From: an uncultured Candidatus Saccharibacteria bacterium
Lineage (GTDB): Bacteria; Patescibacteriota; Minisyncoccia; Phycocordibacterales; UBA9973
Length of the DNA stretch: 64,000 bases
NCBI GenBank assembly: GCA_964591445.1
Contig: CAZQAW010000002.1
Location: 67,394 to 131,393 of the forward strand
Reading direction: 5' to 3'
Shown: in pieces, positions 10,910-47,475 of the stretch
How the letters are laid out: each line of letters opens with the position of its first letter
Position numbering within the stretch: position 1 is the first letter of the stretch
Notes under the pieces: model-generated
Seen by the model: the letters and a program-made list of their open reading frames with translations, nothing else
Databases searched by the model: none
What the model was told of the DNA's origin: nothing
Made by a program: the position numbers and the translations under genes

Positions 10910-11176
10910 TTAAGCTTTTATCTTCTTTACGATCTCGGCATGAGCTTCCTTGTTCTTTCGTTCAAGATATTTCAAATGCTTTCGTCGGTCTGCCACCATC
11001 TTGATGAGTCCGCGGCGAGAGTGGTTGTCCTTCTTGTGCGTCTTCAAATGGCTTGCAAGTTCGTCGATCCGAGCGCTTAGGATACCGATCTGCGCTTGAG
11101 AAGAGCCGGTGTCTTTGTCGTGAATCTGAGACTTTTTGATAACTGCTTGTTTTTTCTTTGTCGTAAGCATGGGCAT
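10910..11176 (-). CDS. rpsO: 30S ribosomal protein S15
   Basis: 88 aa, MPMLTTKKKQAVIKK...GILSARIDELASHLKTHKKDNHSRRGLIKMVADRRKHLKYL. Confidence 0.9.
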   Translation of the reverse strand: MPMLTTKKKQAVIKKSQIHDKDTGSSQAQIGILSARIDELASHLKTHKKDNHSRRGLIKMVADRRKHLKYLERKNKEAHAEIVKKIKA

Positions 11177-11206: not shown

Positions 11207-11318
11207 CCCCTTCTCCTGAGGTAGGAGAAGGTGGCCTTTAGGCCGGATGAGGTATGTGTATAATCCAATACCTCACCCCGAACCTTCGGTCGACCCTCTC
11301 CTACTTTAGGAGAGGGAG
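11207..11318. repeat. family-A palindromic interspersed element, full copy (copy 1)
   Basis: 112 bp with hairpin-forming ends (CTTCTCCTGAGGTAGGAGAAG ... CCCTCTCCTACTTTAGGAGAGGG) and internal GAGGTAT..ATACCTC inverted segment; its exact reverse complement occurs at 26008..26119. Confidence 0.85.
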
Positions 11319-11344
11319 GAATTCAAAAATGCTATACTCTCTAC

Positions 11345-12370
11345 ATGTCACAAATCGACACGCTCAAGCGCCAATTTCTCGAATATTTGGAAATCGAAAA
11401 AGGTTCAAGCATCCGCACGGTAGAAAATTACCAGCGCTATCTCGAGCGTTTTTTTGAACAAGCGAAAATCGCGAATGCTTCTGACATTACCGACGACGCG
11501 GTGCGAGATTTTCGTTTGTGGCTCAACCGCCAATACGCAAAACATCAGAAAAGCAATCGCTTGCCGGGGAACACTATTTCCAAGCGCACGCAAAACTACT
11601 ATATGATCGCGCTCCGCATGTTCCTCAAATTTTTGATGAAACGCGAAATCAAATCTTTGCCAGCAGACCGCATCGAACTTGCAAAAACGACCGAGCGGCA
11701 CCTTGATCTCATTTCCAAAGACGAGCTCAACCGTTTGCTTGCAGCGCCCAAAGGCACCGACTTGAAATCGCTACGCGACAAAGCGATTTTGGAATTACTT
11801 TTTTCTACCGGGCTTCGCGTGTCGGAACTTTGTTCGCTCGGAAGTGATTTGGATGTGAACCGCGACGAATTCTCTATCCGCGGAAAAGGTGGCAAAGTGC
11901 GCGTAGTGTTTCTTTCCGACGATGCAAAAAATGCGGTGCGTGCGTATATGAAAGCCCGCAAAGATATGTCTGAAGCGTTGTTCGTGCAAGTTTCTGATAT
12001 GGAAGGCGGAAAAAAGAAAAAAGAAAAAGAGACACACCTCTCCGTCAGCAAAGCCGACACCTCTCCTTCAAAAGGGGAGGAAAACTTAAAGAAGAAAAAA
12101 AATAAAACTACTCTTGAGGCCGTTGCTCTCACTCGCCGTTCGGTCGAACGTATTGTGAAGCATTATGCAGTCGTTGCAGGCATTTCCAAAAAAGTAACTC
12201 CGCACGTCATCCGTCACAGCTTCGCGACAGATTTGCTGGGCAACGGCGCAGATATCCGCAGTGTGCAAGTCATGCTCGGCCACGCGAACATTGCAACCAC
12301 ACAAATATATACGCATGTCACAGACAGCCAGCTCCGAGAGATCCACAAAAAGTTTCATGGGAAAAAATAA
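11345..12370 (+). CDS. tyrosine site-specific recombinase, XerC/XerD-like
   Basis: N-terminal core-binding domain; C-terminal VTPHVIRHSFATDLLGNGADIRSVQVMLGHANIATTQIYTHV (R..H..R..Y catalytic set). Contains a Lys/Glu-rich insertion of about 45 aa at 11985..12125. Confidence 0.8.
   Translation: MSQIDTLKRQFLEYLEIEKGSSIRTVENYQRYLERFFEQAKIANASDITDDAVRDFRLWLNRQYAKHQKSNRLPGNTISKRTQNYYMIALRMFLKFLMKREIKSLPADRIELAKTTERHLDLISKDELNRLLAAPKGTDLKSLRDKAILELLFSTGLRVSELCSLGSDLDVNRDEFSIRGKGGKVRVVFLSDDAKNAVRAYMKARKDMSEALFVQVSDMEGGKKKKEKETHLSVSKADTSPSKGEENLKKKKNKTTLEAVALTRRSVERIVKHYAVVAGISKKVTPHVIRHSFATDLLGNGADIRSVQVMLGHANIATTQIYTHVTDSQLREIHKKFHGKK
12037..12110. repeat. family-B palindromic element copy embedded in frame in the recombinase gene
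   Basis: CACCTCTCCGTCAGCAAAGCCGACACCTCTCCTTCAAAAGGGGAGGAAAAC is about 80% identical to 37143..37200; it encodes the extra loop SVSKADTSPSKGEEN... absent from canonical XerC/D. Confidence 0.5.
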
Positions 12371-17927: not shown

Positions 17928-18016
17928 TGTTTCACGTGAAACAGTTTCATATGAAACACCACATAAAATCTCGATTTTTGGCATCTTTAGAAAAAATTCA
18001 TGTTTCATATGAAACA
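17928..18016. promoter_or_regulatory. three palindromic operator-like sites TGTTTCAYRTGAAACA upstream of yraN
   Basis: 17928..17943 TGTTTCACGTGAAACA (perfect 16-bp palindrome), 17944..17957 GTTTCATATGAAAC (abutting), 18001..18016 TGTTTCATATGAAACA (perfect; 9 bp before the ATG at 18025). Confidence 0.55.
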
Positions 18017-18024
18017 ATAGCCTT

Positions 18025-18480
18025 ATGCCAAAGGTTTTTACTTCAAAAAGCCAAAAAATAGGGGAGTTGGGTGAAGAAATTGCCTGTAAATATCTTATTT
18101 CTAAAGGATTTAGAGTTTTGGAACGCAATTATACAAAGAAGTGGGGAGAAATAGACATAATTGCAGAACGTGATAGGAAAATCTACTTTATAGAGGTAAA
18201 AGCGGTTTCATGTGTAACATTGCCGGAGGTTTCTCAGTCAGACAATACCTCACCCCGGGCCTCTGGCCGACACTCTCCTACCTTAGGAGAGGGAAGAAGC
18301 CTTTTCCGTCCAGAAGAAAACATGCATCCAATGAAAGTCCGCAAGTTCTTAAGGACAATTCAAACGTACTTGATCCAAAGGAAAATAGAAGGGGAGTGGC
18401 AAGCAGATCTGTATTGCGTGTATATCCAGCTTGAAAGCCGCAAGGCAAGGGTGACGAAAATAGAAAACATTATTGGTTGA
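18025..18480 (+). CDS. yraN: YraN/UPF0102 family endonuclease-like protein carrying an in-frame repeat-derived insertion
   Basis: KYLISKGFRVLERNYTKKWGEIDIIAERDRKIYFIEVKA ... DLYCVYIQL matches the YraN core; about 30 extra residues (SQSDNTSPRASGRHSPTLGEGRSLF) are encoded by a family-A repeat fragment. Confidence 0.7.
   Translation: MPKVFTSKSQKIGELGEEIACKYLISKGFRVLERNYTKKWGEIDIIAERDRKIYFIEVKAVSCVTLPEVSQSDNTSPRASGRHSPTLGEGRSLFRPEENMHPMKVRKFLRTIQTYLIQRKIEGEWQADLYCVYIQLESRKARVTKIENIIG
18224..18302. repeat. family-A palindromic element, partial copy inside the yraN reading frame
   Basis: CAATACCTCACCCCG...CCGACACTCTCCTACCTTAGGAGAGGGAAG shares the ACCTCACCCCG and CTCTCCTACnTTAGGAGAGGG blocks with 11207..11318. 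Confidence 0.6.
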
Positions 18481-24922: not shown

Positions 24923-25978
24923 TTATTTCTGATCTTCCAAGAATTTGAAGACGAGCTCGTTGGTCATGATGCTTTCGATGTAGACTCTTGCGCGGATCGG
25001 GTCTGCGCCTTTGTAATGTTCTACGAGGTGGCCGACTTGCGTCTCAACTTCTTTTTCGTCCGGCTTCAAGTTTTCTTTGACGCTTATTGCATGAAGAATG
25101 AGCTCGAGCTTTGCGCGCTTTTCTGCATCCGGAGCGATTTCTTTTTTGATATCGTCTTCGGTTTTGTTCAAGTGTTTCAAATAATCTTCGTATTTCATGC
25201 CCGCTTGCTCGATGTCAGTTTTCACTTTATAGATCGTCTTGTCGATTTCAGAATTGATGATGACTTGCGGAACGTCTATTTCAGAAGTTTTCACGAGTTC
25301 TTCGACAAGCTGCGCTCGAGATTTGCTTTGCGCTTGCTGAGCTTTTTCAAGCGCGATGTTTTCTTTCATTTTTGCTTTGAATTCCTCGACAGTTTTGAAC
25401 GGTCCAAAACCTTGCACGTATTCATCATTGAGTTCTGGCAAGTCTTCGTCTTTGAGTGCGTCATGCGGAGCGTGTTCGCCTGGTTTATCATTCTTATGAA
25501 ATTCGTTGTGCTGTCGCATGCGGCGAACTTCGAGTATTGCGTCTTCAACTTCTTTATCTGTCACTTCGCTTGCGATTTCTTTTTTATTTTCTTTCGCAGC
25601 TTTTTTATAATCGCCAAGTTTCACTTCCGGCATCACCGCTGTGGTGATTTTGAAACCAAGTGGGTTGTCTTGCGCAAGTTTGGTGATCATGATTTCCGGT
25701 CGGCCAATCGCGTCAATTTTATTTTCTTCAAGAATTTTTGGGTACGCTTCGCTCATTGCAAGTTCGGCCATTTCTTCAAGAATTGCAGAAGGCTGGACTT
25801 TGCTTTCAAGCACGCTTGTTGGTACTTTGCCTTTGCGGAAGCCGTCGAGCTCTACGTCTTTGCCGATAATTTCAAGCGCTTTTGCACGGTAAGAAGAGAA
25901 TTGCTCAGCGGCAATTTCTCCGGAAATTTCTATTTGGCTTTTGGCTAATTTCTTTATGTCGATATTCATAGTAGCCAT
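24923..25978 (-). CDS. tig: trigger factor lacking the PPIase domain
   Basis: The N-domain signature LDGFRKGKVP and the C-domain block DLPELNDEYVQGFG align with E. coli TF on both sides; the roughly 100-aa FKBP insert is absent (351 aa vs 432). Confidence 0.8.
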   Translation of the reverse strand: MATMNIDIKKLAKSQIEISGEIAAEQFSSYRAKALEIIGKDVELDGFRKGKVPTSVLESKVQPSAILEEMAELAMSEAYPKILEENKIDAIGRPEIMITKLAQDNPLGFKITTAVMPEVKLGDYKKAAKENKKEIASEVTDKEVEDAILEVRRMRQHNEFHKNDKPGEHAPHDALKDEDLPELNDEYVQGFGPFKTVEEFKAKMKENIALEKAQQAQSKSRAQLVEELVKTSEIDVPQVIINSEIDKTIYKVKTDIEQAGMKYEDYLKHLNKTEDDIKKEIAPDAEKRAKLELILHAISVKENLKPDEKEVETQVGHLVEHYKGADPIRARVYIESIMTNELVFKFLEDQK

Positions 25979-26007
25979 ACTTTAGCAGAAAGTTCGTGTT
26001 TTGGCGA

Positions 26008-26119
26008 ATCTCCCTCTCCTAAAGTAGGAGAGGGTCGACCGAAGGTTCGGGGTGAGGTATTGGATTATACACATACCTCATCCGGCCTAAAGGCCACCTT
26101 CTCCTACCTCAGGAGAAGG
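26008..26119. repeat. family-A palindromic interspersed element, full copy (copy 2, inverted relative to copy 1)
   Basis: Exact reverse complement of 11207..11318 over 112 bp (checked base by base). Confidence 0.85.
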
Positions 26120-26125
26120 GGTACC

Positions 26126-27202: not shown

Positions 27203-27250
27203 GCCTGTGACTTGCCAAAAACCCTCTCCTGGCTAGGAGAGGGTTAGGGT
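27203..27250 (-). terminator. terminator of ppa built from a family-A-like palindrome
   Basis: AACCCTCTCCTGGCTAGGAGAGGGTT hairpin with a T-run on the minus strand; resembles the CCCTCTCCTAC..TAGGAGAGGG end of family A. Confidence 0.5.
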
Positions 27251-27260
27251 GAGGTTGAGT

Positions 27261-35322: not shown

Positions 35323-35471
35323 TAGAAAAAGTGGAAAATATGATTTGAAATGCCTTGCGCAAGGTCGTCTACAGATGTCTGTCTTACCCGACAGACCCGT
35401 CGGGCCGAGCAGAGCAAAAATTCAGCAGAATTTTATGTCGTGCATTTCAAATCATATTTTCCACTTTTTCT
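35323..35471. repeat. 30-bp perfect inverted repeat flanking an 89-nt structured core in the HIT/recJ divergent intergenic region
   Basis: AGAAAAAGTGGAAAATATGATTTGAAATGC (35323..35352) and its exact reverse complement (35442..35471). The core contains the palindrome CCTTGCGCAAGG and the stem GTCTGTC-TTACCC-GACAGAC; the right arm ends 4 nt before the recJ ATG. Confidence 0.65.
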
Positions 35472-37151: not shown

Positions 37152-37200
37152 CCCCACCCCTCCGTCTCGGAATACCGAGCCACCTCCCCTTTAAAAGGGG
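37143..37200. repeat. family-B palindromic element copy downstream of recJ
   Basis: ACCCCACCCCTCCGTCTCGGAATACCGAGCCACCTCCCCTTTAAAAGGGGAGGAAAACACG; related to 12037..12110; hairpins CTCGG/CCGAG and CCTCCCC/GGGGAGG. Confidence 0.5.
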
Positions 37201-37300
37201 AGGAAAACACGAGTTCTTGACTTTTTATACAATATGGTGTAAAGTGTGGTCAAACGAATTTTAAAATAACAAATAATTAAACTAAAACAAATTTACAACA

Positions 37301-41400: not shown

Positions 41401-43631
41401 GTACCGGCGGCGCGGGAACTTCCGACACGATTCTACCCAGTATATCCATCACCTCGCCAACTACTAGCGCGACCTACTCTACTTCCACTCCTTCTATTAC
41501 TCTCTCTGGTAGCGCTTCTGACAATGTGGCTGTTACGTCGGTCGTCGCGGTAAACGCAGCAGCAGGCGCATCCGCAATCAGTATCAGCGGTACGACATCT
41601 TGGACCGGAAGTGTGTCACTTGTGTCCGGCTTGAACAGTCTTGTTGTGACAGCATACGATGCAGCTGGAAACCAAAAGCAAGCAACGCTTGATGTTACGT
41701 ACACACCAGCAGACACTGTTCTTCCAAACGTTTCTATTGTGGCACCGGTTGCTTCTGGTGGAACATATCTTGCAACTTCTAACTCCCTCACCACTCTTGC
41801 CGGCACCTCTTCCGACAACGTCGGAGTCACCCAAGTAACATGGGTCAACTCACTCGGCGGCTCTGGTACAGCAACAGGAACAACAAGCTGGTCTGTGCCT
41901 TCGATTGCGCTTTCCAACGGCTCTAACGTGATTACGGTCACAGCCAAAGATGCGGCAAACAATACGAAGACTGCAAGTATCACAGTAGTTCGAGATACGA
42001 CAGCCCCAACAGTTTCTGTCACAGTTCCTACAGCTGGTGCATCATTTACTGGCACAAGCCCTATCACTTTGACTGCAAATGCGACTGACAACGTAGCTAT
42101 CGACCATGTCGACTTCTACTATGGCTCAAACCAATTCATCGGCGGCGCGACAACTGTCACCGGTGGCAACTACACTCGCACATGGACACCAAGCACAAGC
42201 GGGTCTATCGGCCTTTACGCTATCGCATATGACACATCTGGAAATCCAAAGACTTCTGCAACAGTTACAATCTCTGTCAGTCTTTCAACTCCGGACACTA
42301 TCGCTCCGACAGTACAAATGTCTGCTCCGGCAGCTGGTGCAACAGTGTCTGGCACAGCGGTCACTCTTGGTGCAGTTGCAAGTGACAACACGGGTGTATC
42401 TTCTGTAGCATTCTACTTGGATGGAGTGGCGATCTCTGGCGCAATCGATACGACAGGCAACAATCCAAACACGAATGGCACCGGCATCACCGGCCAACTC
42501 TATGAAGCGGTATGGAATACATCTTCAGTTTCAAATGGAACACATACACTTTCTGCTCGAGCAACAGATGCGGCTGGTAATATCAAAAATTCATCGACAG
42601 TTTCGATCACGGTTTCAAATGTAGTCGGCCAACCAGATCTTATAGTTACAGATCTCAGCTGGACTCCGGCATCACCAGTTCTTGGTTCAGTTATTACATT
42701 TAGTGCAGTGGTGAAAAATGTAGGAAATGCAGCAACACCTGCAGGAAAAGTGACAAGCGTTACTTTCTACAACAACGAAGGCACTGTCATCGGTTGTGGT
42801 GACTCTTATACTCAGTCCATCGCAGCTGGCGCAAGCATTACGGTGACAGCTGGACAGACTTCATCTGTCACAAGCAACTGGTGTAACACTACTCTTGGCG
42901 GACAAATTCCTCCAACGTGGATTGCTACAGGTAGTGCATTTGAAGCACGAGCTGAAGTTGACGACATCAACCGTATTACTGAAAGCAATGAGACAAACAA
43001 CATGTTGACTACTGTATATAATCCTCCGGCAGATACGACTGCTCCAACTGTTGCTATCACTTCTCCGACAACGTCTGCAACATACAGTTCAACAAGTGCT
43101 ACACTTGCGAACCTTGCCGGCACCTCTTCCGACAACGTCGGAGTCACCCAAGTAACATGGGTCAACTCACTCGGCGGCTCTGGTACAGCAACAGGAACAA
43201 CAAGCTGGTCTGTGCCTTCGATTGCGCTGCTTAGTGGTACAAATGTGATTACAATCACTGCTTATGATGCATCAGGAAATACTGCAACCAAGCAGCTTGC
43301 AGTGTCATACGCAGTTGCATCAAGCGATACAGTTGCACCAACGGTCACTATTACGAGCCCGGCTAACAATGCCAATGTCTCAAACACTTCTAATACGACA
43401 TTTGTTGCCACAGCAACGGACAATGTCGGCGTAACTGAAGTGAAATTTTTTCTCGGGGGCACTACAACGGCAGCGAAATGCACTCTTTCTTCTCCTACTA
43501 CTGCACCTAGTACTTACACATGTTCGTTCAAAGTACCGTCCGTCTTCTTCGGATGGGGAACTTCGACCATAACAGTACAGGCAAAAGACGCAGCAGGAAA
43601 TACGAAAGTGACAAGCATCAAAGTTCGCTAA
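38448..43631 (+). CDS. giant (1727 aa) membrane-anchored adhesin-like protein: LamG/ConA-like domain, about 600-aa unassigned central domain, about 7 Ig-like repeats and a CARDB-like domain
   Basis: N-terminal TM; LamG-like block FHHMVFTYDGASGKRTIYVDGVKF...GSIDEVAIYK; repeated DTxAPTVxITSP...SDNVGVTxV Ig-like modules; CARDB-like PDLIVTDLSWTPASPVLGSVITFSAVVKNVGNAATP. Confidence 0.75.
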   Translation: MKKNTFLVGLSVVVVFVLIFNIFKTDSLRGILKRVGNRGQQAAVNSVPTTIPDYYWRFEGGMTPTNGSGNYPVTGGSVATGCSAAGGCLNTTVSSVNGTFPSIGSVSKLSYEFLFKAGPRFETTIFFDDRPSQTAFSAMLEWPASGLTIPKLWFQVNGDRLSVDLTGIGQKRWGYFADGNFHHMVFTYDGASGKRTIYVDGVKFAEKTGTTGNVNLSSNNLYSGGLTSYERLSGSIDEVAIYKNVAIDPLLVAQHYQDAVVNGVAYNTTNTTVANVPAAPASTAGIDSSEYPVGYPTPGSMASATTQLKSYPLPRYKPGNTLMKNVDWIDGMYFGGRFQPGVSDPQAVTNSTTIKDELAKNWNYAVMINWSSGNEFVPAWKTLINNNPSYQFDFTTLRAQVNGGTKITNQTLPNDRYFQNASGSALVPAGCGTASGTKYWRAVPNFEADYMSDGTSAAGWVAGALSGLNADRKVRILNENGEVHLYYTNGCGSQDPLIESSRAAYNSANGTSLTTKQYIGEQYRRSMQNEYFTPIKNASPSRLTDTKFTLYQVSGRGEYAYDWSTARKINTPINGQYYSTLDFYQGFYGATGPNNWANGVGAGNGLGVFLEARKNEIALGDKLFSPFVAAGWMHSNIHPYTNTTYSQTDVRPGQWLGMLKLLGAIGAEFYYTGYFNEGGNYQNCTTSGGTCPALPQTYAWQAVMPSYAQGAMSRAEDLLRGTLITNTAGNLPAVYTNPTSNDGFLLATGDKTVPAFARQSGSKYLITAAVMRNHNMQESAQEQTKNVNVTVGGDNLRIQARQQGSMYVYDKSNTAAPIFYQIDGWHERAHPSYWTGDFSIEAEMPDSGTAQLVTYGPGVASKDFTPGNYTTAVKNASGTLSYNFQPRNAASSGTETRYLWFRANNNSTTAASTGSFAVDSGAAQTVSLPANSGNVWCNKNSAGQVMAFSVSQNADHQLKYTASNANLYVDQFVLTTNPNLGLGTCTGGAGTSDTILPSISITSPTTSATYSTSTPSITLSGSASDNVAVTSVVAVNAAAGASAISISGTTSWTGSVSLVSGLNSLVVTAYDAAGNQKQATLDVTYTPADTVLPNVSIVAPVASGGTYLATSNSLTTLAGTSSDNVGVTQVTWVNSLGGSGTATGTTSWSVPSIALSNGSNVITVTAKDAANNTKTASITVVRDTTAPTVSVTVPTAGASFTGTSPITLTANATDNVAIDHVDFYYGSNQFIGGATTVTGGNYTRTWTPSTSGSIGLYAIAYDTSGNPKTSATVTISVSLSTPDTIAPTVQMSAPAAGATVSGTAVTLGAVASDNTGVSSVAFYLDGVAISGAIDTTGNNPNTNGTGITGQLYEAVWNTSSVSNGTHTLSARATDAAGNIKNSSTVSITVSNVVGQPDLIVTDLSWTPASPVLGSVITFSAVVKNVGNAATPAGKVTSVTFYNNEGTVIGCGDSYTQSIAAGASITVTAGQTSSVTSNWCNTTLGGQIPPTWIATGSAFEARAEVDDINRITESNETNNMLTTVYNPPADTTAPTVAITSPTTSATYSSTSATLANLAGTSSDNVGVTQVTWVNSLGGSGTATGTTSWSVPSIALLSGTNVITITAYDASGNTATKQLAVSYAVASSDTVAPTVTITSPANNANVSNTSNTTFVATATDNVGVTEVKFFLGGTTTAAKCTLSSPTTAPSTYTCSFKVPSVFFGWGTSTITVQAKDAAGNTKVTSIKVR
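41796..41911 (+). repeat. intragenic 116-nt exact duplication, copy 1
   Basis: CTTGCCGGCACCTCTTCCGACAACGTCGGAGTCACCCAAG...TCGATTGCGCT identical to 43113..43228 (encodes LAGTSSDNVGVTQVTWVNSLGGSGTATGTTSWSVPSIAL). Confidence 0.85.
43113..43228 (+). repeat. intragenic 116-nt exact duplication, copy 2
   Basis: Identical to 41796..41911 at nucleotide level. Confidence 0.85.
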
Positions 43632-46482: not shown

Positions 46483-47367
46483 ATGATCCTGTTTTGGTAT
46501 ACTTGCTGTATGCAATTCTTGAAACGGAACCGCTGGCTTATACTTTTGTGTCTTGTTTTGCTGTGTATTTTTGTCTGGTGGAAATTGTGGTCTGCCAATA
46601 CCGGCAAGTTGCAAGTTTCTTTTCTGGATATTGGACAAGGGGACAGTATTTTTATCCAAGCGCCCAACGGCCGGCAAGTTTTGATAGACGGCGGCAGAGA
46701 CCAGACTGTTTTGAAACGCCTCGGCGAAGTGATGCCGTATGGCGACCGCTCGATAGACGTGATGATTGCGACGCATCCGGACGCTGACCACATTGGCGGG
46801 CTGCCTTTTGTGCTTGCACACTACAATGTTGCGATGGTAATGGAGCCTGGCGTGGGCTCGGATTCTGACGTGTATCAAACTTTTGAAGAAAAAATAGGGG
46901 AAGAGAAAGCGGCGCGCGAGTACGCGCGCCGCGGCATGACCCTCGTTCTCGACCAAGAAAAAAACATCCACCTCGATATTTTATTCCCAGACCAAGACGT
47001 TTCAACGTGGGAAACGAACGAAGCCTCCATCGTTGCCAAGCTTGTCTATGGACACACTTCTTTTTTGTTGACCGGCGACGCGCCACGACAAACCGAACTT
47101 TATTTGGACAAACTCAACAAGAAAGAACTCGACGTCGACGTGCTCAAGCTCGGCCACCACGGTTCGCACACGTCTACTTCGCCGACATTTATCCAAGACA
47201 CAACGCCCGACTACGCCATTATTTCAGCAGGCAAAAACAACAGCTACGGCCACCCGCACCCAGAAGTCTTGCAAGTGCTGGAAGCTTTCCAAGTGCCGTA
47301 TCTTGCAACGTACGAACAGGGAACTATTACATTTGTAAGTGATGGAGAAGTGCTTATTAAGAAATAG
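46483..47367 (+). CDS. stand-alone ComEC-type metallo-beta-lactamase domain protein (membrane-anchored)
   Basis: N-terminal TM; VSFLDIGQGDSIFIQ...ATHPDADHIGG...LKLGHHGSHTS motifs of the ComEC C-terminal MBL nuclease domain. Confidence 0.75.
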   Translation: MILFWYTCCMQFLKRNRWLILLCLVLLCIFVWWKLWSANTGKLQVSFLDIGQGDSIFIQAPNGRQVLIDGGRDQTVLKRLGEVMPYGDRSIDVMIATHPDADHIGGLPFVLAHYNVAMVMEPGVGSDSDVYQTFEEKIGEEKAAREYARRGMTLVLDQEKNIHLDILFPDQDVSTWETNEASIVAKLVYGHTSFLLTGDAPRQTELYLDKLNKKELDVDVLKLGHHGSHTSTSPTFIQDTTPDYAIISAGKNNSYGHPHPEVLQVLEAFQVPYLATYEQGTITFVSDGEVLIKK

Positions 47368-47475
47368 CCAGAACATACTTTTTAAAAGCACGACATAAAA
47401 TCCTGGTGGATTTTTGCTCTGCTCGGCTCGACAGCCTGCGCAAGGCTTTTCAAAAGCATGTTCTGGCTATTTCTT
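47360..47475. repeat. 24-bp inverted repeat (1 mismatch) with 68-nt spacer bridging the stops of two convergent genes
   Basis: AGAAATAGCCAGAACATACTTTTT (47360..47383) versus AAAAGCATGTTCTGGCTATTTCTT (47452..47475). Confidence 0.45.

Follow-up and report, generated by a model that had tools for sequence, protein, structure and literature searches.

An element-derived, in-frame insert in the hypervariable loop of YraN from a Patescibacteria-type bacterium and its probable origin in a palindromic repeat unit

Results

The DNA studied here is a 64-kb stretch (64,000 nt; hereafter the window) of contig CAZQAW010000002.1 from a Patescibacteria-type bacterium. It carries an intact yraN open reading frame (ORF) at 18025–18480 on the forward strand, encoding a 151-residue protein of the PD-(D/E)xK nuclease-like UPF0102 family. 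The gene hosts an insert at 18243–18298 (forward strand) derived from a palindromic element that also lies in intergenic DNA of the window. This insert encodes residues N74–S92 (NTSPRASGRHSPTLGEGRS) and is identical at 48 of 56 positions (86%) to positions 11266–11321 in a gapped local alignment. BLAST of the insert against the intergenic element gave 86.5% identity over 52 nt (E = 3e-7), and an ungapped repeat search matched 18226–18298 to 11249–11321 (78% over 73 nt). The string CTCTCCTAnnTTAGGAGAG occurs in the window at 11296, 18273 and 26014 only, where shuffled sequences lead one to expect none, and ACCTCACCCCG is present exactly at 11270, 18247 and 26048; an 11-mer and a 19-nt palindrome within the homology were seen nowhere else in the 64 kb (shuffle expectation 0–0.4). 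The original prediction, made from the letters alone, had proposed a piece of a palindromic element inside yraN on the basis of shared strings, and the intact ORF, the identity to the intergenic element and the specificity of these strings all bear it out.

The intergenic element is present in two full, two-arm copies. Copy 1 (11207–11318, forward strand) lies between an rpsO-like ORF (10910–11176, reverse strand) and a XerD-like ORF (11345–12370, forward strand), and copy 2 (26010–26121, reverse strand) is flanked by a small ORF on one side and on the other by a trigger-factor-like ORF (24923–25978, reverse strand), from which it is separated by 32 nt on the upstream side. The two copies, each 112 nt long, lie on opposite strands with 14.7 kb between them and are 100% identical, which speaks for recent copying. 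The element is predicted to fold into a single long imperfect hairpin in which the arms pair end to end (-65.5 kcal/mol, z = -7.0), and with its terminal inverted repeats and its size below 300 bp it has the traits of a miniature inverted-repeat transposable element (MITE). Since a profile of the right arm also recovers the left arm on the opposite strand (nhmmer, E = 3e-4 and 9e-4), the element can be described as an inverted pair of one unit. This unit consists of an A-box (ACCTCACCCC), a mini-hairpin (CCGAaccTTCGG) and a terminal hairpin (CCCTCTCCTACTTTAGGAGAGGG); more generally, CCTCACCCC is combined with a G/C-rich terminal hairpin (CCCTCTCC-loop-GGAGAGGG), and a mini-hairpin may stand between the two. 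In yraN, string search places the A-box, coding for T-S-P, at 18247–18256 (forward strand), and the terminal hairpin CTCTCCTACCTTAGGAGAG, coding for S-P-T-L-G-E, lies at 18273–18291 (forward strand) and is retained in the minimum-free-energy fold, while the yraN region as a whole folds no better than shuffled sequence (z = -1.3). Judged from sequence, the yraN insert is thus exactly one unit, the right arm of the 112-nt element: the predicted 'fragment' is element-derived, as proposed, and it is one complete arm of a two-arm palindrome rather than an arbitrary piece.

The 5' limit of the insert was set by comparison with shuffled sequences. The extension of the ungapped match at 18226–18242 (forward strand) is probably ancestral loop DNA. 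Taken alone it resembles the element no better than shuffled sequence does, and the left and central part of the element scores 7 against yraN, with a shuffle mean of 7.6; because these 17 nt and the DNA to their left are at shuffle level, the insert was taken as 18243–18298. At the corresponding position the orthologous loci L004, L005 and L006 have GTTTCAnATGAAACA, with which 18226–18242 aligns, and orthologues hold there a second copy of a parS-like palindrome (see below). An extension of the homology into the centre and left arm of the element, through matches to GCCGGA and GAGGT at 18222–18230, was discarded as not above shuffles.

The host protein appears to have kept its core around the insert, as had been predicted. 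The window YraN matches the Pfam family UPF0102 (PF02021) with E = 5.8e-17 and 62.3 bits (curated cut-off 23.6), the match ending at residue 61, immediately ahead of the loop. A protein search of 5.8 billion sequences returned 2,582 YraN homologues, those with names being labelled Patescibacteria YraN or 'putative endonuclease'. The residues at the invariant positions G41, E42, D44, E57, V58 and K59 are all retained; D44, E57, V58 and K59 are invariant across 118 homologues, so that the D...E-x-K motif is kept. An AlphaFold2 model has a mean predicted local distance difference test score (pLDDT) of 81, and values below 50 are confined to residues 69–92, between the strand 52–62, which bears E57-V58-K59, and the helix 96–119. 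Foldseek placed the model closest to the solved UPF0102 structure 3fov (E = 1.3e-7, template-modelling score 0.82), followed by Hjc Holliday-junction resolvases. Measured between the invariant E-V-K and R-P-E-E-N motifs in the 118 aligned homologues, the loop has 18 residues (the mode) in 61 of them and ranges from 15 to 40; that of the window YraN has 35. The excess is therefore 17–20 residues, relative to the mode and to the 15 residues of the nearest insert-free orthologue, and falls short of the roughly 30 extra residues of the original prediction. Low confidence at residues 69–92, a conserved fold and retained catalytic-motif residues together point to a tolerated surface-loop addition; by this model, which is the structural check proposed with the prediction, the insert extends a disordered surface loop in frame and leaves the remainder of the protein intact.

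Orthologues place the insert in a particular lineage, and the alignment proposed with the prediction gives a clear result. P0001, 97% identical to the window protein, has the same insert with two substitutions. P0003, 84% identical, has a 15-residue loop without it and is the closest insert-free orthologue, and the loops of P0002 (77%) and P0004 (72%) are unrelated in sequence; the DNA of the orthologous locus L003 likewise has no insert. The insert is also present in two independent Logan assemblies of other sequencing runs, one identical to the window (L001, run SRR12762304) and one 98% identical (L002, run SRR14932526), and it is accordingly not an assembly chimera, the possible source of error named beforehand. 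Between the window yraN and positions 708–1163 of L002 the differences are unevenly distributed, with 28 in alignment columns 14–163, none in columns 164–252 and 11 in the other 210 columns, which suggests that the two alleles form a recombination mosaic.

Units are also found at the same yraN site in more distant relatives. In L006 (P0005, 67% identical) a diverged unit with a mini-hairpin, ACGACCCCTAACCGGACTTCGTCTCGATCCTCCCCTTATAAAGGGGAGGAGGAAATTC, occupies the site, and L021 (P0011; P0024 is similar) holds a complete two-arm element, CCTCCCCCTTAACAAGGGGGAGG-TTGGGAGGGGGT, a 12-nt spacer and ACCTCACCCCAA-CCCTCTCCTTATAAAGGGGAGGGGG. The loops of P0030 and P0058 read TSPQ(A/P)SPY(Q/K)GE(E/G), a translated unit without the mini-hairpin. 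Orientation and frame (T-S-P = ACC TCA CCC) are the same for all units at the yraN site, and in every carrier the hairpin stops 2–6 codons before [Y/F]RPEEN. When relatives were compared with the YraN loop masked, the nearest relatives of each carrier were found to be without the unit (for example, P0098 at a distance of 0.09 from P0011 and P0113 at 0.05 from P0030), so that there are at least five separate patches of presence among YraN lineages. Outside yraN, at least three combinations of frame and orientation of the unit are tolerated. This comparison argues for site- and orientation-specific insertion at yraN, or for repeated loss of an ancient insert, and not for random hits.

The repeat occupies both intergenic DNA (four sites) and ORFs (18243–18298 and 12033–12085) in the window. 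The second intragenic copy, at 12033–12085 (forward strand; nhmmer 12053–12082, E = 0.002), is a degenerate in-frame unit in the XerD-like recombinase gene and encodes THLSVSKADTSPSKGEEN. It sits in a lysine-rich excess of about 35 residues (query residues 203–259 against E. coli XerD 192–213), and the flanking parts of the protein align to E. coli XerD residues 60–192 and 213–290. A single intergenic unit at 37152–37203 (forward strand; nhmmer E = 0.016–0.03), composed of CCCCACCC, the mini-hairpin CTCGGaataCCGAG and the hairpin CCTCCCCTTTAAAAGGGGAGG, lies right after the stop of a 598-residue ORF, and another, at 27222–27254 (reverse strand; nhmmer E = 0.06), has the hairpin CCCTCTCCTGGCTAGGAGAGGG followed by TTAGGGTGAGG. 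Both 112-nt copies stop 26–32 nt ahead of a start codon (11319–11345 for the XerD-like gene, 25978–26009 for the trigger-factor-like gene) in the same orientation to the gene; two copies are too few to support a promoter or Shine-Dalgarno role, and this idea was set aside. A search of the window against Rfam 15 brought only tRNAs to the gathering score, and the element region gave sub-threshold matches to hairpin-shaped models only (E >= 0.1).

The unit extends well beyond this genome. A metagenome scan with the pattern CCTCACCCC-N(1-20)-CTCTCCT-N(3-7)-AGGRGAGGG returned at least 120 loci on contigs of 36–70% G+C. Among the 120 loci listed, none is close to the window's own element family, the shared feature being the unit motif only, and yraN is absent from all of them. 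Six ORFs with Pfam matches, all on low-G+C contigs, contain the unit in frame. It falls within the matched domain in the DNA polymerase III delta' subunit HolB (L030; unit at residues 91–103, domain 41–224) and in UvrD (L091; residues 85–97, domain 17–297), and in the epoxyqueuosine reductase QueG (L078; ORF of 462 residues) four or five tandem in-frame units (TSPPSPLLIGEGGNDSEI...) lie between the DUF1730 and 4Fe-4S domains. In the other three ORFs a Pfam match is found on one side of the unit only: in TruB (L120) the unit at residues 162–175 follows a TruB_N match (28–125) that ends at profile position 101 of 149, in a Wzy-type ligase (L131) the unit at residues 209–221 comes shortly before the Wzy_C match (229–390), and in an S9 peptidase (L085) units at residues 113–124 and 167–178 are N-terminal of the Peptidase_S9 match (216–400). 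The in-frame copies in the XerD-like gene and in the HolB, UvrD, QueG and TruB homologues answer the question, raised with the prediction, of whether other copies keep the reading frame, and such units in many host ORFs indicate that behaviour resembling that of the Rickettsia palindromic elements (RPEs) is a property of the whole unit class and not just of the window yraN. Mini-hairpin variants keep their pairing, as in GCCCTACGGGC, GTCCGACGGAC and TCGAAGAGTCTTCGA.

The pattern CCTCACCCCGNNCCTNNGGNCGAC gave only 13 single matches in GTDB representative contigs, all in high-G+C Actinomycetota, Acidobacteriota and similar groups; these are chance matches, and the element of the window is therefore absent from the GTDB representatives. 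A literature search on the motif strings found only unrelated human and viral primer matches, and, in a literature coverage that was not exhaustive, we came across no description of such repeats in Patescibacteria. As a separate observation, 44 of the motif matches listed from the metagenome scan belong to a conserved multi-hairpin family that lies mostly downstream of genes (for example L034, L067, L095, L101 and L133), with the arrangement ...ttatttatctaa-CCTCACCCCCTTTATCCCCCTCTCCTTCAAAGGAGAGGGGG-(about 12 nt)-AGAGGGGCTTCGCCCCTCT. Its second hairpin shows compensatory variation (GAAGGGGC/GCCCCTTC, GAGAGGC/GCCTCTC), and the family may represent a structured RNA or an element resembling a terminator.

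Among the metagenome loci the unit recurs beside genes for DUF559 (PF04480), a Vsr-like PD-(D/E)xK domain that has been grouped with Vsr and the homing endonuclease I-Bth0305I (PMC3424549; PMC9403480). By tblastn, DUF559 genes adjoin inverted units or sit between them in 5–6 of the 120 motif loci listed. L097 reads hairpin, GGGGTGAGG, DUF559, CCTCACCCC, hairpin, a layout shared with the 112-nt element except that an ORF replaces the 12-nt spacer; L062 and L135 are similar. L144, a Patescibacteria contig with a free-standing DUF559 gene that was picked through the protein and not through the motif, has perfect inverted ends made of an A-box and a hairpin (AGCCCCCTAA...CCCCCTAAAGGGGG and CCCCCTTTAGGGGGTTAGGGGGCT). 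In two organisms a DUF559 domain and its flanking G/C-rich hairpins are translated in frame inside tgt, the gene for tRNA-guanine transglycosylase (L120, about 400–1570 on the reverse strand; L146, P0121, 35–748), the hairpins yielding the peptides SPTPALPKGEG and ALPFGEGLGEA, and DUF559 is also fused to a leucyl-tRNA synthetase (LeuRS) domain (P0202) and to a protein named RecG (P0143). None of the hairpin-bounded DUF559 cassettes in other metagenome contigs has the window element's own arms. The peptide motif is present in 11 of the 120 called DUF559 proteins listed, a low count that is uninformative because most gene calls leave out the flanks. In L135, positions of about 130–1150 form a single ORF of 413 residues that runs through a unit, an inverted unit, DUF559, a unit, CBM_48 (the GlgB N-terminal domain) and an inverted unit, an order suggestive of a cassette sitting within the 5' portion of a glgB-like gene.

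The yraN loop also has a second class of palindromes, which is context for the loop and not part of the element. A cluster of parS-like palindromes lies at and inside the 5' half of yraN (17928–18219, not assigned to a strand); it comprises four matches to TGTTTCACGTGAAACA with at most three mismatches, and all such matches in the window fall within these 300 bp. We surveyed ten yraN loci (L001–L007 and L021–L023) from 7 organisms with 56–100% protein identity. At a distance of 18–127 nt upstream of yraN, eight of these loci have a perfect TGTTTCACGTGAAACA and the remaining two a copy with a single mismatch, and each locus has variant palindromes (GTTTCATATGAAAC, GTTACACGTGTAAC), 1–3 of them upstream and 1–3 inside the variable loop, where they are translated as VSRET, VSHET, VSYET or VTRVT. 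Unrelated loci gave 2 matches in 690 kb. Since parS-like palindromes occur in the loop at all ten loci, the hypervariable YraN loop seems to be shaped mainly by DNA-level elements, and the centromere region of these Patescibacteria may lie at yraN.

Other repeats in the window are unrelated to the unit. In a separate palindromic family, arms of 30 nt at 35324/35442 (35324–35471) are 100% complementary and separated by 88 nt, and arms of 31 nt at 47359/47445 (47359–47475) are 94% complementary; the inner parts, 35399–35451 and 47380–47432, are 89% mutually complementary. A direct repeat of 170 nt with 88% identity (41796–41965 and 43113–43282) is spaced by 1317 nt.

Discussion

We consider it likely that the insert in yraN arose by RPE-like, in-frame insertion of one palindromic unit into the YraN loop. 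The genome would carry a family of small palindromic repeats in which two inverted units form the 112-nt intergenic element, and one unit of about 56–60 nt would have entered the DNA coding for the hypervariable, disordered loop that joins the catalytic strand bearing E-V-K to the helix after it. As the inserted unit would have been stop-free and in frame, whether by chance or by selection, YraN would have gained about 19 loop residues while retaining its fold and catalytic motif. The insert is homologous to the element, is in frame, is present in a particular lineage, lies in the loop and has counterparts in other YraN lineages. From this we infer that the repeat is mobile and that its insert in YraN is neutral or tolerated; its mode of movement is likewise a matter of interpretation.

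Several observations sit uneasily with this explanation. There is no target-site duplication at either full copy, the flanks (...TTGCAAG/GAATTC and ...TTTGGTA/ATTCGCC) sharing no direct repeat, and no mobilising transposase or endonuclease for the element was found in the window, where DUF559 alone was searched for. The copies in the window number three clear ones and about four weak ones only, and the same orientation and frame in five YraN lineages would not be expected under purely random insertion. In addition, the unit could be a selected DNA or RNA structure and not selfish DNA. In that case it would be kept in the yraN loop for a structural function, either as a protein-binding or cruciform site tied to the parS-like cluster or as an mRNA hairpin, and would not be tolerated junk. 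The 1–3 parS-like palindromes in the loop of every orthologue imply that DNA-level features shape this segment, the yraN copy has kept its terminal hairpin whole, the mini-hairpin variants preserve pairing and the unit recurs at the same site, all of which fits such a function. Most YraN homologues, nearest relatives included, nevertheless do without the unit, the predicted folding of the entire yraN region is at shuffle level, Rfam gives no match and the unit is present in many unrelated genes and intergenic sites, and we regard a structural role as improbable. Far less credible still is an ordinary lineage-specific loop expansion with chance similarity to the repeat, or an assembly chimera. 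The loop is indeed hypervariable in length and sequence across the family, and the insert is compositionally simple, being G/C-rich and palindromic, but neither property accounts for 48 identities in 56 positions, among them an 11-mer and a palindrome of 19 nt that are absent from the rest of the window, and the presence of the insert in two independent assemblies already contradicts this account.

A different question is how an RPE-like insertion of the unit would have come about, and here the DUF559 genes offer a lead, which is a mechanistic sub-hypothesis of the insertion explanation as much as its competitor. It is conceivable, if doubtful, that the insert is what remains, at the right end, of a DUF559 mobile cassette with inverted ends built from units: the cassette would have entered a specific yraN site in frame, in a homing-like manner, and later lost its endonuclease ORF, and the 112-nt element would be an internally deleted cassette. 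The inverted units around or next to DUF559 genes, the correspondence between L097 and the 112-nt element, the perfect unit ends of L144, the translated DUF559 domains and hairpins in tgt of two organisms, the LeuRS and RecG fusions and the grouping of DUF559/Vsr with I-Bth0305I are all in line with this idea, and a site-specific invader would account for the common site, orientation and frame in five YraN lineages. There is, however, no DUF559 gene in the window by tblastn, and a chimeric YraN-DUF559-YraN query recovered no double-domain protein in its best 120 matches. Six of the eight DUF559 loci examined were found through the motif itself, L147 has hairpins on the upstream side only, units pointing towards the ORF and units pointing away from it are both seen, and DUF559 genes may merely insert into palindromes that are already present. 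We therefore put forward only tentatively that the unit is the terminal repeat of an undescribed class of selfish DUF559 (Vsr-like) cassettes, with fixed sites in housekeeping genes (tgt, leuS, recG, yraN and others), which would be translated through and not spliced, and would decay to two-arm and one-arm palindromes.

Among known systems, the closest parallel in behaviour is that of the RPEs, described by Ogata et al. in 2000 as summarised in PMC10969869. Like them, the window repeat is a palindromic repeat of about 100–150 bp found both between genes and within ORFs, its intragenic copies are in frame and add an extra surface peptide without destroying the host protein, and unrelated housekeeping genes are hit. 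In contrast to the RPEs, it occurs in a bacterium that, to judge by the names given to the homologues, is of Patescibacteria type and not in the phylum of Rickettsia; its sequence looks unrelated, although it was not aligned to the RPE-1 to RPE-10 consensus and we do not claim membership; the yraN copy is a single 56-nt arm; one host site has been struck repeatedly in separate lineages; and the unit spans contigs of 36–70% G+C and not one genus. The original prediction had regarded survival of this kind as known from Rickettsia and rare elsewhere. The RPE-like character holds, whereas the rarity does not, given that, according to a 2024 review, it is 'not unusual' for intragenic MITEs to form in-frame fusions, RPEs being the extreme case (PMC10969869), and that the unit is widespread.

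The element also shares features with MITEs of the ERIC, BOX, Correia, Chunjie and Nezha type, being small and strongly folding, with terminal inverted repeats, and having identical dispersed copies alongside truncated one-arm copies, as PMC10969869 describes for QMITE2 and Chunjie. It differs from them in having no target-site duplication and no identified parent insertion sequence with matching ends, its sole candidate partner being a DUF559 endonuclease gene and not a classical transposase. Short G/C-rich hairpins in many, mostly extragenic copies and frequent inverted pairs recall the RAYT-mobilised repetitive extragenic palindromes and bacterial interspersed mosaic elements (REP/BIME); membership is not supported, as the sequences inspected by eye have no GTAG/CGTC tag at the hairpin foot (tags described in PMC3733652) and units also lie in frame within genes. 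The PD-(D/E)xK ORF at the same tgt position in two organisms resembles Vsr-like (EDxHD) homing endonucleases such as I-Bth0305I, with the differences that no intron or intein is evident, that translation of the host protein runs through the DUF559 ORF together with its hairpin ends, and that DUF559 homing is putative. Collectively, the units apparently form an undescribed repeat family that shows known RPE-like behaviour.

The yraN insert provides a clean example outside Rickettsia of a palindromic repeat surviving within a protein, with insert-free and insert-bearing orthologues, DNA homology and a structural model to hand. What it adds to earlier examples is the recurrence at the same site across YraN lineages, the spread of the unit across phyla in housekeeping genes and the DUF559 lead. 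The repeated hits on one loop of a small conserved nuclease-like protein in Patescibacteria point to a site preference and help to explain the odd protein insertions reported from these reduced genomes. Should the DUF559 link prove correct, it would identify what drives a widespread palindrome motif and would define a mobile element tolerated by translation and not by splicing, and cassette remnants would explain many odd loop insertions in Patescibacteria proteins together with the cross-phylum palindrome motif.

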